This document shows, piece by piece, positions 15,645 through 32,274 of a stretch of DNA of 64,000 bases. Numbering within the stretch: the stretch's first letter is position 1; the number at the start of each line of letters is the position of its first letter. The notes beneath the pieces are model-generated. The model worked only from the letters and a program-made list of their open reading frames with translations. It was not told the origin of the DNA and ran no database searches. Source of the stretch: Mobula hypostoma. Taxonomy: Eukaryota. Location: NCBI RefSeq assembly GCF_963921235.1, contig NC_086114.1:55180001-55244000 (forward strand), read 5' to 3'. Made by a program: the position numbers and the translations under genes.

Positions 15645-16590
15645 AACCAGTCTGTGCGGATCAGAAATAACATCTCTGCCTTGCTGATAATCAACACTGG
15701 CGTGCCTCAAGGATGCATGCTTAGCCCACCCCTCTGCTCTCTCTACACCCATGACTGTGAGGCTAGGCACAGCTCAAAAGCCATCTATAAATTTACTCAC
15801 GACACAACCATTGCTGGCAGAGTTTCAGATGGTGGCGAAGCGGTGTACACAAGTGAGCTAGATCGGCTGGTTAAGTGGTATTGCAGCAACAACTTTGTGC
15901 TCAACTTAAGACTAAATAAATTGTGGATTTCAGAAAGGGTAAGATGACAGAACACGCACCAGTCCTCATAAAGGAATCAGAAGTAGAAAGGGTGAGCAAT
16001 TTCAAGGGTCTGGGTGTCATCATCTCTGAGGATCTGTCCCAGGCCCAACATATCGATGCAATTACAAAGAAGCCACAATAGTGGCTATATTTCATTAGGA
16101 GTTTGAGGAGGTTGGGTCCATCATGAAAGACAAATTTTTACAGATGTATTGTGGAGAGCATTCTGACTGGATGCATCACCATCTGGTTGTGGGGTCGGGG
16201 GTGCACAGCACAGGATCGAAATAATCTGCAGAAAGTTATAAACTCAGTCAGCTCCATCAGGCCACCTTCAAGGAATAGTACCTCAAAAAGGCAGCATTCA
16301 TCAACAGGGACCCCCATCACCCAGGACATGACCAATTCTCATTGCTACCACCAGGAAGGAGGTACAGAAGCCTGAAGGCACAGACTCAACGATTCTGGAA
16401 CAGTTTTTCCCTTCTGCCATACGATTTCTGAATGAACATTGAACCAATGAACACTACCTCACGACCTTTTCCGTCACTTTTTGCACTAATTTAACTTTTT
16501 GTATATATACTTACAGTCATTCAGCTTTTAGTTATTATGTATTGCGATGTACTGCTGCCACATAAGAAATTTCACAACATATGCCAGCGA
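15645..16590 (+). mobile_element. Rex-Babar-clade LINE 3' fragment
   Basis: INTGVPQGCMLSPPLCSLYTHDC..IYKFTHDTTIAG; ESILTGCITIW; the (ATTCTG)n tail is displaced to ~18135-18148 by the nested CR1. Confidence 0.85.
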
Positions 16591-18115
16591 TGTGCAAGGG
16601 AGAGGGTGAACAGCCAGAGGTCGCAATGCATATTGGCACTACTGACGTAGGCAGAAAAGGGGAAGAGGTCGTGCACAGTGAGTGTAGGGGAAAGAGGATG
16701 AAGAAAAGGACCTCCAAGGCAGTAATCTCAGGATTACTCCCGGTGCCAAAGGCTAATGCAGGTAGGAATGGCAGGAGAGCCCAGATGAATGAGTAGCTGA
16801 AGAGGACCTGTGCTGGGACCTCTGCTGTTTGTGATGTATATAAATGATCTGGATGAAAATGTAGATGGGTGGGTTAGTAAGTTTGTGGATGATACCAAGA
16901 TTGGTGGAGTTGCGGATAGTGTAGGGGACTGGTCAATAATACAGCGCAATATAGGTCAGTTGTAGATATGGGCAGAGAAATGGCAGATGGAGTTTAAAGG
17001 TTTCAAAGGTCCAATTTAATGTCAGAGAAATGTATACAATATACATCCTGAAATGCTTTTTCTTCACAAACATCCACGAAATCAGAGAAGTGCCCCTAAG
17101 AATGAACGACAGATAAACGTAAGAACTCCAAGGTCCTCCCCCCCCCCCAGCTCCCCTCCCTCCCCCCACAGACAAAGAAAAGTAAGCATTGGTACCATCA
17201 CCAAACACTCAGTGTGATCAAAGCAACAGCAAAGACACAGACTTGCAGTTACCCCAAAGACTTCGCATTACACCCGGCATTCGACATACCGCAGATTCTC
17301 TCTCTCCCTAATAAGGGAGGAAAGGGTGTCTCCATTTTCCCAGCGACTGGGAAGACATAACAAACAACTAGCTGGTTTACGATGTTTATCCAGTTAAGTG
17401 TAAGATGCTGCACCTTGGTAGGGCAAATGCGAGGAGACAGAACAGTGCTAAGGGCGAGATCATTAACAGTGTTGCTCTTCGAAGTGGCTACACAGGTTGA
17501 TAGAGTATTTAAGACTTATGGAACGCTTGTTTCAATCGTCGAGCCATTGAGTTCAAAAGTCACGAGGTTATGTTGCAACTTTATAAAACTTTGGTTAAAC
17601 CACATCGAGAGTATTGCGTACAATTCTGATTGCCCCGCTCTAGGAAGGACGTTGAAGTTTTGGGGAGGGTGCAGAAGAGGTTTACCAGGGTGCTGCCCAA
17701 ACTTGGGTTCTTTTCTCTGGAGTGGTGAGGACTGGGGGAAGATCTAGGATAGTGATCTATAAGATTATGAAAGGCATAGATAGAGTGGACAGAAACTGTT
17801 TCCCAGGGTTGAAATATCTAATACCAGAGGGCATTGAAGGTGAGAGAGGGTAGGTTCAAAGAGGATGCGAGGGGTAAGTTTTCTGTCCAAGAGTTGTGGA
17901 TGCCTGGAATGCGCTGCCTGGTATGGTGGTAGAGGCAAATAAATTAGAGGCTTTTAAGAGACATTTAGATAGGCACATGGATATGAGGAAGACGGAGGGA
18001 TATGGACATTGTCTAGGTAGGAGGGACTGTTTTGCGGTTTTAAAAAATTTACTGTTTAGCTGGTTTGGTACAGTATTTGGGCCGAAGGGCTTGTTCCTGT
18101 GCTGTACTGTTCTAT
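16591..18115 (+). mobile_element. Internally deleted CR1 LINE (ORF1 esterase piece joined to RT/3' end), with a nested antisense Rex 3' UTR at ~17000-17385
   Basis: GEGEQPEVAMHIGTTDVGRK (ORF1 SGNH) abuts VLGPLLFVMYINDLDE..SKFVDDTKIGG; DAWNALPGMVVEA C-terminus. Confidence 0.8.
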
Positions 18116-27100: not shown

Positions 27101-27772
27101 TTTAAAACCATCTTTTATCCATTTTCCATTTCACCCTGATGAGATTTTGGTAAAATACTTCATACATCAGATGGAAAATTTCAATCGACTTACAAAGGAC
27201 AGTGTGTTAGGAAGAGTTTTCTGGATTTTCTCTGTTCTTTTCTGGATTTGTGAAAAATATGTTTGTTCATTAGATTAACTTCGGTGTTAAATTTGTGCCT
27301 CATTTGTTCTCAACTCCCTTACAGAAGAAGTTATTTTTTATTTGCATTTCTTATCAATTCAATGTTTTCTTGAGGTTCTCAAAGCCGGAGGAGGTAGTGG
27401 GGATATGCTCCCACTACCTATTAAATGCTCCCAATGGCGTGCATCTCAAATAGTCTCTGACAACCAAGTCCAACTCCTGGACTTCATGTGTGGCTTAGCT
27501 ACTAAGTCTGGTGAATCGTTTCTTCTGATAGCAGAAGGGGCAAAGGCAGGTTACTGGCACCTTAAAACCAGTCACTTTGGGCAGCTAGGATTCGTCAGCT
27601 ATGGCTGGTAGCTCACCTAGGAGAAAGAATTCTCTGGTCTCAACCGCTGCTGCCTTGAAGCTATAACCATTCATGGGACAGGCTTCAGGAGTAAACTCCA
27701 AGGAAAAGAGACCGTGTAAGGGATCTGGAGCTGCAGCTTGATGACCTACTGCTTATCAGGGAAAGTGAAGAG

Positions 27773-28531
27773 GTGATAGACAGGAGCTACAGGGAGGTAG
27801 TCATCCCTAGGCTACAGGAGTCAGAACACTGGGTCACTGTCAAGAGAGGGAAGGGAAATGCCCGGATAGTGGAGAGCACCCCTGTGGCTGTCCCCCTCAG
27901 CAACAAATATCTTGTTCTGGATGCTGTTGAGGGAAATGACCTGACAGGGGATGCCCACGGTGACCGGGTCTCTGGCACTGAGCCTGGTGCTGTTGTGCAG
28001 GAGAGAAGGAGGGAGAAGAGGAATGCGGTAGTTGTAGGGGATTCCATAGTCAGGGGAACAGACAGGAGATTCTGTGAGCCTGACAGAGATACCCGCACGG
28101 TGTGTTGCCTCCCAGGTGCCAGGGTACGGGATGTCTCGGATCAGGTCCTGAATATTCTAATGGGGGAGGGTGAGCAGCCAGTTGTCTTGGTACATGTTGG
28201 TGCCAATGACATAGATAGGACAAAGGAGGAGGTCCTGAAGAGAGATTTCCAGGAGTTAGGAAGGAAGCTGAGAAGCAGGACCTCCAGGGCAGTAATCTTG
28301 AGATTGCTACCTGTGCCACGTGCTAGCGAGGGCAAGAGTAGTCGGATCAGGCAGATGAATGCCTGGCTGAGAGACTGGTGTAGGGGGCAGGGCTTCAGAT
28401 TCTTGGATAATTGGGATCTCTTCTGGGGAAAGTATGCCCTGTTCAAAAAGGACAGGTTACACCTGAACCTGAAGGGGACCAATATCCTGGCGGGAAAATT
28501 TAATAGAGCTGTTAGGGAGGGTTTAAACTAA
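27773..28531 (+). CDS. CR1 ORF1, SGNH/GDSL esterase-like domain (N-terminal zinc finger lost to truncation)
   Basis: VVVGDSIVRG, CLPGARVRD, VHVGAND, DRLHLN blocks; ends REGLN*. Confidence 0.85.
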   Translation: MIDRSYREVVIPRLQESEHWVTVKRGKGNARIVESTPVAVPLSNKYLVLDAVEGNDLTGDAHGDRVSGTEPGAVVQERRREKRNAVVVGDSIVRGTDRRFCEPDRDTRTVCCLPGARVRDVSDQVLNILMGEGEQPVVLVHVGANDIDRTKEEVLKRDFQELGRKLRSRTSRAVILRLLPVPRASEGKSSRIRQMNAWLRDWCRGQGFRFLDNWDLFWGKYALFKKDRLHLNLKGTNILAGKFNRAVREGLN

Positions 28532-31500
28532 TTTGGCAGGGGGATGGGAACCGGAATGATAGAGCAGAGGAAGGGGATAACAGAAATAAATCTAAGATAG
28601 TGAGCAGTAAAGATGTCAGGAAAGACAGGCAGGTGATGGGGCAAATGTGTAGCCATAGGGATGAGTTGAAGTGCAATAAAGTTGCAGTGAAATCAAAGCA
28701 AAAAGTATCAAATACTGGTCTTAAGGTGTTTTACTTAAATGCACGCAGCATAAGGAATAAGGTGGATGATCTTGTTGTACAGCTACAGATTGGCAGGTAT
28801 GATATTGTGGCCATCACTGAGACCTGGCTAAAGGATGCATGTCTCTGGGAGCTGAACGTCCAAGGATACACGGTGTATCGGAAGGATAGGAAGGTAGGCA
28901 GAGGGGAAGGCGTGGCTTTATTGGTAAGAAATGATATTAAATCGTTAAGAAAGAGGTGATATAGGATCGGAAGGTGCAGAATCTTTATGGGTTGAGCTAA
29001 GGAATAGCAGGGGTAAAAAGACCCTGATGGCAGTTATTTATAGGCCTCCAAACAGCTGCAGGGATGTGGACTACAAATTACAACTGGAAATAGAAAAGGC
29101 TTGTCAGAAGGGCAGTGTTATGATAATTGTGGGGGATTTTAACATGCGAGTAGATTGGAAAAATCAGGTCGGCACTGGATCCAAGAGAGTGAATTTGTAG
29201 AATGTCTGCGAGATGGCTTTTTAGAACAGCTTGTTGTTGAGCCCACTTGGGGATCGGCGGTACTGGATTGGGTATTGTGTAATGAACCGGAGTTGATTGG
29301 AGGGATTGAGGTGAAGGAACCCTTAGGAGGCAGTGATCATAACATGATTGAGTTCACTGTGAAATTAGAAAAAGAGAAGCCGAAATCTGATGTGTCGGTG
29401 TTTCAGTGGAGTAAAGGAAATTACAGTGGCATGAGAGAGGAACTGGCCAAAGTTGACTGGAAAGAGACACTGGCGGGAAAGACGACAGAGCAGCAGTGGC
29501 TGGAGTTTATGCGAAAAATGAGGAATGTGCAAGGCAGGTATATTCCAAAAAAGAAGAAATTTTCGAGTGGAAAAAGGATGCAACCGTGGTTGACAAGAGA
29601 AGTCAAAGCCAAAGTTAAAGCAAAGGAGAGGGCATACAAGGAAGCAAAAATTAGTGGGAAGACAGAGGATTGGGAAGTTTTTAAAACCTTACAAAAGGAA
29701 ACCAAGAAGGTCATTAAGAGAGAAAAGATTAACTATGAAAGGAAACTAGCAAATAATATCAAAGAGGATACTAAAAGCTTTCTCAAGTATATAAAAAGTA
29801 AAAGGTGAGAGTAGATATAGGACCGATAGAAAATGATACTGGAGAAATTGTAATGAGAGATGAGGAGATGGCAGAGGAACTGAACAAGTATTTTGCATCA
29901 GTCTTCACTGAGGAAGACAGCAGGATACCGGACACTCAAGGGTGGCAGGGAAGAGAAGTGTGCGCAGTCACAATTACGACAGAGAAAGTACTCAGGAAGC
30001 TGAATAGGCTAAAGGTCGATAAATCTCCTGGACCAGATGGAATGCACCCTCGTGTTCTGAAGGAAGTAGCTGTGGAGATTGCGGAGGCATTAGCGATGAT
30101 CTTTCAAAAGTCGATAGATTCTGGCATGGTTCCGGAAGACTGGAAGATTGCAAATGTCACTCCGCTATTTAAGAAGGGGGCAAGGAAGCAAAAAGGAAAT
30201 TATAGACCTGTTAGCTTGACGTCGGTGGTTGGGAAGTTGTTGGAGTCGATTGTCAAGGATGAGGTTACAGAGTACCTGGAGGCATATGACAAGATAGGCA
30301 GAACTCAGCATGGATTCCTTAAAGGAAAATCCTGCCTGACAAACCTATTACAATTTTTTGAGGAAATTACCAGTAGGCTAGACAAGGGAGATGCAGTGGA
30401 TGTTGTATATTTGGATTTTCAGAAGGCGTTTGACAAGGTGCCACACATGAGGCTACTTAACAAGATAAGAGCCCATGGAATTACGGGAAAGTTACATACG
30501 TGGATAGAGCGTTGGCTGATTGGCAGGAAACAAAGAGTGGGAATAAAGGGATCCTATTCTGGTTGGCTGCCGGTTACCAGTGGTGTTCCGCAGGGATCAG
30601 TGTTGGGGCCGCTTCTTTTTGCATTGTACATCAACGATCTGGATTATGGAATAGATGGCTTTGTGGCTAAGTTTGCTGACGATATGAAGATAGGTGGAGG
30701 GGCCGGTAGTGCTGAGGAAACGGAGAGTCTGCAGAGAGACTTGGATAGATTGGAAGAATGGGCAGAGAAGTGGCAAATGAAGTACAATGTTGGAAAGTGT
30801 ATGGTTATGCACTTCGGCAGAAAAAATAAACGGGCAGACTATTATTTAAATAGGGAAAGAATTCAAAGTTCTGAGATGCAACGGGACTTGGGAGTCCTCA
30901 TACAGGATTCCCTTAAAGTTAACCTCCAGGTTGAGTCAGTAGTGAAGAAGGCGAATGCAATGTTGGCATTCATTTCTAGAGGAATAGAGTATAGGAGCAG
31001 GGATGTGATGTTGAGGCTCTATAAGGCACTGGTGAGACCTCACTTGGAGTACTGTGGGCAGTTTTGGTCTCCTTATTTAAGAAAGGATGTGCTGACGTTG
31101 GAGAGGGTACAGAGAAGATTCACGAGAATGATTCCGGGAATGAGAGGGTTAACATATGAGGAACGGTTGTCTGCTCTTGGACTGTATTCCTTGGAGTTTA
31201 GAAGAATGAGGGGAGACCTCATAGAAACATTTCGAATGTTAAAAGGCATGGACAGAGTGGATGTGGCAAAGTTGTTTCCCATGATGGGGGAGTCTAGTAC
31301 GAGAGGGCATGACTTCAGGATTGAAGGGCGCCCTTTCAGAACAGAAATGTGAAGATATTTTTTTAGTCAGAGGGTGGTGAATCTATGGAATTTGTTGCCA
31401 CGGGCAGCAGTGGAGGCCAAGTCATTGGGCGTATTTAAGGCAGAGATTGATAGGTATCTGAGTAGCCAGGGCATCAAAGGTTATGGTGAGAAGGCGGGGC
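28522..31500 (+). pseudogene. CR1 ORF2 (apurinic endonuclease + reverse transcriptase), disrupted
   Basis: YLNARSIRNK, AITETWL, GDFN, SDHN, NYRPVSLTS, LDFQKAFDKVPH, GVPQGSVLGP, KFADD. Lesions: +1 at ~28946, -1 at ~29182, small deletion at ~29803, premature TGA at 31350-31352. Confidence 0.93.
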
Positions 31501-32274
31501 AGTGGGACTAAATAGGATAAAATGGATCAGCTCAAGATAAGATGGTGGAGCAGACTCGATGGGCCGAATCGCCTACTTCTGCTCCTTTGTCTTATGGTCT
31601 TATGGAAAACTCCAGAGCTGGAGTCTCTAATAGAGTCATACGATGAGTTCAACACTGACCGGCAACTTCTGCGACACTGCTGGTGCCAAACTGTATTGGT
31701 CTCTGCCGTTCCTTTGGATTCATCCACTGCATGGTGAGAGGGAACCTGCTGCACGGGCAACAGCTTGCTCTCCATATTGTACTGCCTTGGCTTGTCTATC
31801 ACATTGACAGCTCGGGTGCAACATCCATGGTCGACCTAGATCAGTGGAAGGCCTCAATCAATTTAATGACAGAAGCTCATAAGATTGGGAGAGTAGACAG
31901 TTGGTGCCTTTTTCCCCAGAGTAAAATGTCAAATACAGAGAATGTGCATTAAAGTGAGAGGGTGAAACTTCAAAGGAGATGTCTTTTATACACAGCGAGT
32001 GGTAGGTATCTGGGGTGTGTTGCTGGGTTGGGGGGGGTGGTGAGTGATGGAAGTAAGTATGGTAGAGGCATTGAAGAGGCTCCATATGTTCCTTAGACTC
32101 TTACCCTATATCAGTGTTCAGACCGATGACATCCAGAGACGCTCTCTAAACCTTTGCAACCATTCAATTCGATTAGCTAAATGTGAACCAATCCACAGAT
32201 TCATGCTGATTCTCTTTAATCAGCTCACACTTGACCAATTGGTCAGCCATCCTTTTTCGAATTGCAACCAATGT

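Follow-up and report, generated by a model that had tools for sequence, protein, structure and literature searches.

Vertebrate CR1 elements probably make their reverse transcriptase as a fusion to the protein of the first open reading frame (ORF), by programmed -1 ribosomal frameshifting at the heptamer U_UUA_AAC. We give this prediction, which is drawn from comparative sequence analysis, a probability of roughly 0.8. It starts from a CR1 copy in a stretch of 64,000 nucleotides (nt) of Mobula hypostoma (assembly GCF_963921235.1, contig NC_086114.1, positions 55,180,001 to 55,244,000, forward strand), which is called the window here and from whose first letter all positions are counted. The junction of ORF1 and ORF2 in this copy carries a recoding-like signal that is real and, among the CR1 long interspersed elements (LINEs) of vertebrates, deeply conserved. 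How LINEs translate ORF2 is an open question; work on L1 and SART1 has made reinitiation the common answer. In most vertebrates the dominant retrotransposons belong to the CR1 group (PMC13343379). The junction spans less than 60 nt and the claim is directly testable.

ORF1 in the window ends with GAG GGT TTA AAC TAA. A preliminary description of the sequence had pointed out that TTTAAAC lies here in exact X_XXY_YYZ register before the stop, and that the -1 frame runs open into the ORF2 endonuclease with no in-frame ATG until 28636. All of this holds: the heptamer occupies 28522-28528 and the stop 28529-31, and the -1 frame is open from 28516 up to this copy's own frameshift near 28947. The two ORFs overlap by 16 nt, with no ATG inside the overlap, because a TAG at 28513-15 closes the -1 frame. 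The heptamer of a canonical -1 cassette, X_XXY_YYZ in register with the 0 frame and within the overlap, is thus present. In the linker that follows, the in-frame ATGs are at 28636 and 28645, and out-of-frame ATGs lie upstream of these at 28544, 28556 and 28613. A second in-register heptamer, G_GGU_UUA, overlaps the first; it is restricted to families ending in G-L-N and is not conserved in other families. TTTAAAC itself is not rare, with 12 occurrences on the plus strand of the window, and TTTAAACTAR is found twice against 0.6 expected (at least two in 13 of 100 shuffles). Because the motif alone is unremarkable by chance, the case rests on comparison across lineages, and the above-chance feature is the conservation of the heptamer at this place in lineage after lineage.

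Two sets of sequences were compared. Copies from the same genome (3.48 Gb, with 3242 first-look candidates for the junction) were gathered with six queries, one of DNA and five of protein, and 200 kb of sequence taken at even spacing was added. ORF1 ends were located with queries that lacked their last 12 residues, and clustering used upstream sequence only. The resulting 166 same-genome junctions comprise five families of 68, 30, 21, 20 and 20 copies and seven lone copies; as the searches return the best-scoring copies, the family samples are not random. A profile of amniote-like ORF1s gave 68 loci of host DNA in metagenome contigs, 26 of which reach the end of ORF1. These are called bird-like, their nearest queries being bird, turtle and unnamed proteins, a label that does not fix the host. 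Before codons were counted, 8 of the 26 bird-like junctions and 5 of the 7 single ray copies were dropped, picked by eye after the junctions had been viewed. The dropped bird-like loci are truncated (L119, L120), shifted by indels (L114, L127) or without a recognisable ORF1 end (L129, L130, L156, L177), and the dropped ray copies carry indels (L067, L079, L080, L221, L229); L114 and L080 have the exact heptamer, one base off. This left 25 lineage units, namely five family majorities, two single ray copies and 18 bird-like loci, with a median pairwise identity of 47%.

The exact heptamer stands at the expected place in 63/68, 25/30, 21/21, 17/20 and 11/20 copies of the five same-genome families, which end in GLN, DLN, TLN, CLN and GLN; the misses in the fifth family are mostly length changes of the G-run just upstream. 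The majority of the bird-like loci end with TTTAAACTAG, and their -1 frame reads F-K-L. The codon that follows the heptamer is TAG in 16 units, TAA in 7 and TGG in 2, and never TGA. What is conserved goes beyond coding need, as is expected of a canonical cassette. Codon -3 ends in T in all 25 units, by way of seven codons (GCT, GGT, ACT, TGT, GAT, AGT, TCT) for six amino acids. Leucine at -2 is written TTA in 23 of 23 units as against 15 of 133 leucine codons upstream in ORF1, and at the upstream leucine positions -22, -10 and -7 the 25 units use four to six codons. The final asparagine is AAC in 20/21 units and in 12/36 cases elsewhere in ORF1. When ray and bird-like sequences with the same residue are paired, the codon is identical in 102 of 103 pairs at -2 (99%) and in 433 of 1048 upstream (41%). 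Related units inflate such counts, yet the upstream sites of those same units are saturated. The synonymous positions of TTTAAAC are therefore frozen across rays and bird-like CR1s, and the nucleotide-level conservation that the preliminary description had looked for is there. In contigs from other organisms (four runs) the deepest pile-up falls on 28518-28545, which fits a short stretch common to many families.

The same ending might be kept for the protein's sake. ORF1 protein (ORF1p) would then need its C-terminal Leu-Asn, ORF2 would be started at a downstream AUG after a non-coding spacer, and the heptamer would be a by-product. Leu310 and Asn311 are invariant in alignment A2, which was chosen from full-length proteins, and family ray0, to which the window copy belongs, has an AUG in good context at 28636. 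A need for these residues cannot fix TTA among six leucine codons, nor AAC, nor the T that ends the preceding codon. Ahead of the first AUG, moreover, the sequence (in several families 18-206 codons) is open and in phase, and the youngest family has no AUG ahead of the endonuclease. On the synonymous-site comparison this explanation appears already largely refuted, and we find it hardly credible.

At the protein level the signal can be followed further. ORF1 proteins ending in xLN are named from rays, sharks, bony fish, frogs, turtles, lizards and a gull-like bird. An LN ending of CR1 ORF1s, which the preliminary description had given for amniotes, is borne out by 96 of the 106 proteins that have a 26-residue tail after the catalytic DxxH. 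Glu, Lys, Gln, Met and Trp, which have no codon ending in T, are never found at -3 in 36/36 non-redundant LN-enders; in 38 non-redundant 26-residue tails they occur once at -3, as against 13 times at -4 and 18 times at -5. Of the non-redundant esterase ORF1s, 80 have a natural end, which is LN in 36, GN in 8 and something else in 36. In 7 of the 8 GN-enders the residue at -3 is Gln, whose codons can end in G and never in T. This mirrors the expectation if G_GGA_AAC replaces U_UUA_AAC and may serve as a lead at the protein level; a search of viral contigs for DNA of the xGN-ending relatives gave no match. In the distant ORF1s P0190, P0195, P0220, P0223, P0238 and P0242 the tail is 27-39 residues long and the LN ending is kept regardless of its length. 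A further protein, P0020, is labelled as a Pseudomonas aeruginosa SGNH hydrolase; it is 59% identical to the window ORF1, ends in GLN and is probably cartilaginous-fish DNA in a bacterial record. The split of rays and teleosts lies about 462 million years back (PMC13343379), and horizontal transfer could make the elements' own history shorter.

The second line of evidence is the frame of what follows. For the ray families, the distance from the heptamer to the first endonuclease Asn is 216, 204, 231, 201 and 330 nt, and for bird-like loci it is 117, 159, 270 and 291 nt. All nine lengths are different, all are multiples of 3, and the -1 phase is kept in every one, so the openness of the -1 frame that was first seen in one copy extends over linkers of 117-330 nt. 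In the family majorities the -1 frame is free of stops, and each of the other two has 5-12 (the majority of ray3 is made from 3 copies only). L124 has 97 codons without a Met in the -1 frame, and L132 has two stops in it. Of the 11 full copies of the youngest family (about 99% identical), 7 have an intact -1 ORF of 1004 codons, closed 2 codons upstream. In 9 of the 11 the first Met stands at codon 207 and in one at codon 172; one copy is broken early. The codon-207 Met adjoins the catalytic GDFN, downstream of the NARS and ITETW motifs; because it is the first, an ORF2 protein (ORF2p) started at AUG would lose most of the endonuclease, and the youngest family has no usable AUG. The downstream ORF is thus open in the -1 frame with no conserved start of its own, a result in favour of the reading in the preliminary description. 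An ORF2 start upstream of the ORF1 stop was considered and rejected: 17 of the 25 lineages have the -1 frame closed within 2-8 codons, and a single lineage has an upstream Met.

Some observations on these linkers and copies stand by themselves. In the youngest family (L180-L199, L250-L259, L269), the ORF1 copies that were scored, 127 in all, share 98-100% identity and have no stop. Its linker (L180/L252 compared with L220) has a second GGGATGGGAAC-like motif beyond which it resembles ray1, which suggests recombination between families at the G-rich tract behind the heptamer. An in-frame indel of 27 nt sets the linker of L101 apart from that of L180 (258 vs 231 nt). In L200, L201 and L205 the G-run just before the heptamer is altered in length, which places ORF1 in frame with ORF2. 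As for natural families with a single fused ORF, a search for longer proteins gave 16 matches that are mostly gene-prediction chimeras, which is weak evidence, and P0034, P0070 and L200/L201 were rejected as fused families, being single copies that read through by indel.

Under the frameshift reading, ribosomes would arrive at UUA AAC with the stop codon next. The majority would terminate and release ORF1p. A minority would slip back by one base through tandem slippage of tRNA-Leu and tRNA-Asn from UUA AAC to UUU AAA, resume at the -1 codon CUA (28528-30) and go on through the variable basic linker. The product would be a fusion of esterase, linker, endonuclease and reverse transcriptase of about 311 + 1000 residues, and a low rate of shifting would set the ratio of ORF1p to ORF2p, as in Gag/Gag-Pol. 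The adjacent stop and a G-tract at +11 may stimulate the shift, the latter most likely via a bound protein and not via folded RNA.

This G-tract is the other conserved part of the junction. The G-rich run had been noted beforehand as lying at the usual distance for a stimulator; its position stands, with a start in the window at 28535, 6 nt past the heptamer, whereas a conventional structured stimulator found no support in folds, G-quadruplex patterns or searches for a pairing partner. The conserved part is GGGGG at +11..+15 followed by GGG at about +18..+21, and of 25 lineages, 23-24 have G at +8 and +11..+14 and 16-23 have it at +18..+21. The Gly at -1-frame codon 7 is written GGG in 22 of 26 cases, so the tract is also kept as nucleotides. 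A short conserved motif some 11 nt 3' of the shift site is what is seen in stimulation by a protein, of the type described for the virus of porcine reproductive and respiratory syndrome (PRRSV), and by this analogy the G-tract may be a protein-binding stimulator, unlike the known structured ones.

Several points weigh against frameshifting. The units are related, and their counts are not independent events. The exact heptamer is present in 18 of 25 units, the other 7 being single old copies with 1-3 changes. An LN or GN ending is found in only 44 of the 80 esterase ORF1s, and distant relatives therefore do not all share the signal. Of the 11 bird-like linkers that could be measured, one (L117) is out of phase. 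The ray0 AUG at 28636 lies 28 codons before the endonuclease and has G at -3 and +4. No stable hairpin was found 5-8 nt downstream: 24 of 25 lineages had enough sequence for folding, and in these the 75 nt downstream gave z-scores of -1.7 to +2.7 for secondary structure without pseudoknots. The window copy (z = +0.84) folds no better than its shuffles, and the region is purine-rich. A three-tier G-quadruplex pattern is found in 0 of 25 lineages and a two-tier one in 7; four G3 runs 6-8 nt downstream, the G-quadruplex type (PMC3919603), are likewise absent. No long-range partner of +4..+33 is shared across 9 full elements from five families, 3' tail included. The 3' tail ranks among the top four in one ray1 copy only, where the pairing extends into the flank. 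Local hairpin, three-tier G-quadruplex and pairing of the G-tract with the 3' tail were therefore set aside as stimulators. As a separate observation, the bird-like loci L111, L115, L121 and L133 have a GC-rich hairpin about 28 nt past the heptamer, too far for a canonical stimulator, and the rays are without it.

Further points of this kind concern start codons. An in-frame AUG stands at -1 codons 4-6 in 11 of 27 lineages, in two of them (family ray1 and L138) as UAAUG overlapping the stop, and 12 more have a near-cognate codon there. The ribosome could then terminate and restart a few bases past the ORF1 stop at an AUG or near-cognate codon, the heptamer and G-tract serving as reinitiation signals. 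Such coupling is what reviews ascribe to ORF2 of SART1, at UAAUG, and of L1, where it is AUG-independent (PMC2881922, PMC3708506, PMC5009743), and the lack of a structured stimulator at the junction also speaks for it. Neither type of codon is found in the remaining 4 of 27 lineages (ray3, L215, L121, L128), codon 5 is TGG in three ray families, and the youngest family would depend on a UUG start. A conserved AUG at or beside the stop, as in SART1, was not seen across the 27 lineages, and there is none in the family of the window or in the youngest one. Reinitiation leaves a register-exact heptamer with frozen synonymous sites unexplained, as well as the xGN ending of distant relatives. With start-like codons near the stop and coupling on record in SART1 and L1, it keeps some probability, alone or alongside frameshifting, and we rate it as unlikely; in the AUG-bearing families the two may coexist. 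The ORF1-ORF2 fusion put forward in the preliminary description thus gains comparative support, with an AUG or near-cognate codon beside the stop in 23 of 27 lineages to be held against it.

Another way to account for the motif would be a joint between ORF1 and ORF2 made in RNA, either spliced or due to a slipping polymerase; or the motif may be a signal in DNA or for RNA processing that has nothing to do with translation. ACTAAT resembles a branch point, the TAG families supply an AG after the heptamer, and the xGN relatives may contain CAG/G. The TAA families have no AG, and there is neither a polypyrimidine tract nor a long homopolymer. Four runs of other organisms, guessed to be RNA, show 23 joints; among the 15 that were listed none recurs at the junction, and these come from single contigs with unknown letters in between. 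We regard an origin of this kind as very improbable.

U_UUA_AAC and G_GGA_AAC are named among the shiftiest heptamers (PMC5009743). Coronavirus 1a/1b and retroviral Gag-Pol are served by the same review as examples: U_UUA_AAC in register, and a structural protein fused to a polymerase at a low ratio. CR1 differs in that its stop directly follows the heptamer and that no hairpin or pseudoknot was found at the usual 5-8 nt, pseudoknots being unmodelled. Engineered G-quadruplexes stimulate frameshifting at UUUAAAC (PMC3919603). The PRRSV nsp2 signal CCCANCUCC lies 11 nt 3' of its shift site and is bound by nsp1beta and PCBP (PMC5009743). The CR1 G-tract resembles it in being short, unstructured and of low complexity, in its distance of +11 and in having two runs, but it is G-rich and not C-rich, it belongs to a cellular retrotransposon, and its binding protein is hypothetical. 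As for LINEs, -1 frameshifting is not new in principle, because Dictyostelium TRE5-A and TRE3-A are said to require it for ORF2 translation (PMC5911963, Fig. 1 legend). Like CR1 these are non-long-terminal-repeat elements with an apurinic/apyrimidinic-type endonuclease (APE), but they are amoebozoan and have a different ORF1. SART1 and L1 (PMC2881922, PMC3708506) share with CR1 a bicistronic LINE RNA, and the UAAUG of 2/27 CR1 lineages; their ORF2 depends on translation of ORF1. They make a separate ORF2p, whereas most CR1 lineages have no stop-start overlap and do have a slippery heptamer.

The canonical vertebrate CR1 (PMC13343379) has the same esterase ORF1, endonuclease and reverse transcriptase in ORF2, and short 3' repeats. 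That survey describes two separate ORFs, and its main text contains the words frameshift, overlap and translation 0 times. A review of frameshifting names HeT-A, TART and mammalian LINEs, with no mention of CR1 in the portion covered (PMC5009743). A full-text literature search gave no description of CR1 frameshifting; the 1997 descriptions of chicken and turtle CR1 and the Repbase notes, which lie outside that search, may mention the overlap. If the prediction is right, the N-terminal part of ORF2p is an entire esterase ORF1p, through which the reverse transcriptase would be tied to ORF1p particles or membranes, as in Gag-Pol. ORF2 annotations that start at the first ATG would lose part of the endonuclease, and CR1 constructs built in this way would fail. 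A bolder version, to which we lend limited and tentative credence, is that, in non-mammalian vertebrates, the dominant LINE obtains its reverse transcriptase as a Gag-Pol-like -1 fusion, and that the shift is turned on by a protein docking on the unstructured +11 G-motif, mirroring the arterivirus C-rich signal. This protein would be either a product of the element or a G-tract binder of the host. The cassette would then predate jawed vertebrates, and distant CR1s would have swapped U_UUA_AAC for G_GGA_AAC.

The window copy itself is a dead relic that still carries the junction signal. It is a 5'-truncated member of ray0, about 96% identical to its sibling copies by blastn, and the features are collected in the table below. 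We take it to be a CR1 from its architecture and motifs. In keeping with the esterase type of CR1, it has an SGNH esterase in ORF1, an APE endonuclease and a reverse transcriptase in ORF2 (with the motifs in intact relatives), short tandem 3' repeats, 5' truncation and a high copy number. The nearest named relatives of its ORF1 are ray and shark proteins. The Cys-rich N-terminal part of ORF1 is gone through truncation; a full-length ORF1 is present in L032. ORF2 is broken by indels near 28947, 29181 and 29802 and by a stop at 31350-52.

Table. Features of the CR1 copy and its ORF1/ORF2 junction (positions in the window).
Feature	Position	Strand	Basis
CR1 LINE, family ray0, 5'-truncated, inactive	27707..31605	+	blastn to sibling copies L266-L268, match from 27707 to 31605
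ORF1, 3' part, SGNH/GDSL esterase, ends G-L-N-stop	27707..28531	+	Pfam Lipase_GDSL_2, E 1.8e-13
TAG, two codons upstream of the heptamer, that closes the -1 frame (of ORF2)	28513..28515	+	sequence
Second in-register heptamer G_GGU_UUA, overlapping the first, one codon upstream	28519..28525	+	sequence
Slippery heptamer U_UUA_AAC, predicted -1 shift site	28522..28528	+	T TTA AAC register; cross-lineage conservation
Basic linker, -1 frame, from shift site to first endonuclease Asn (28738-40)	28528..28737	+	frame analysis
ORF1 stop TAA, directly 3' of the heptamer	28529..28531	+	sequence
Conserved G-tract GGGGG-NN-GGG, candidate stimulator	28539..28548	+	starts at +11 after the heptamer
ORF2, endonuclease and reverse transcriptase	28720..31352	+	RVT_1, E 3e-33; Exo_endo_phos, E 1e-4 (below Pfam's cut-off)
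3' tail, two 8-nt repeats (TCTTATGG)	31590..31605	+	sequence; blastn end

Two smaller observations concern the surroundings of this copy. A second CR1-like fragment at 16566-16995 has esterase-coding sequence fused straight to sequence from the middle of the reverse transcriptase, an internal deletion having taken out the ORF1/ORF2 junction. The CR1 copy is inserted in an older repeat, as its flanks (27381-27700 and 31605-31855) match adjoining stretches of L202 at about 70%.

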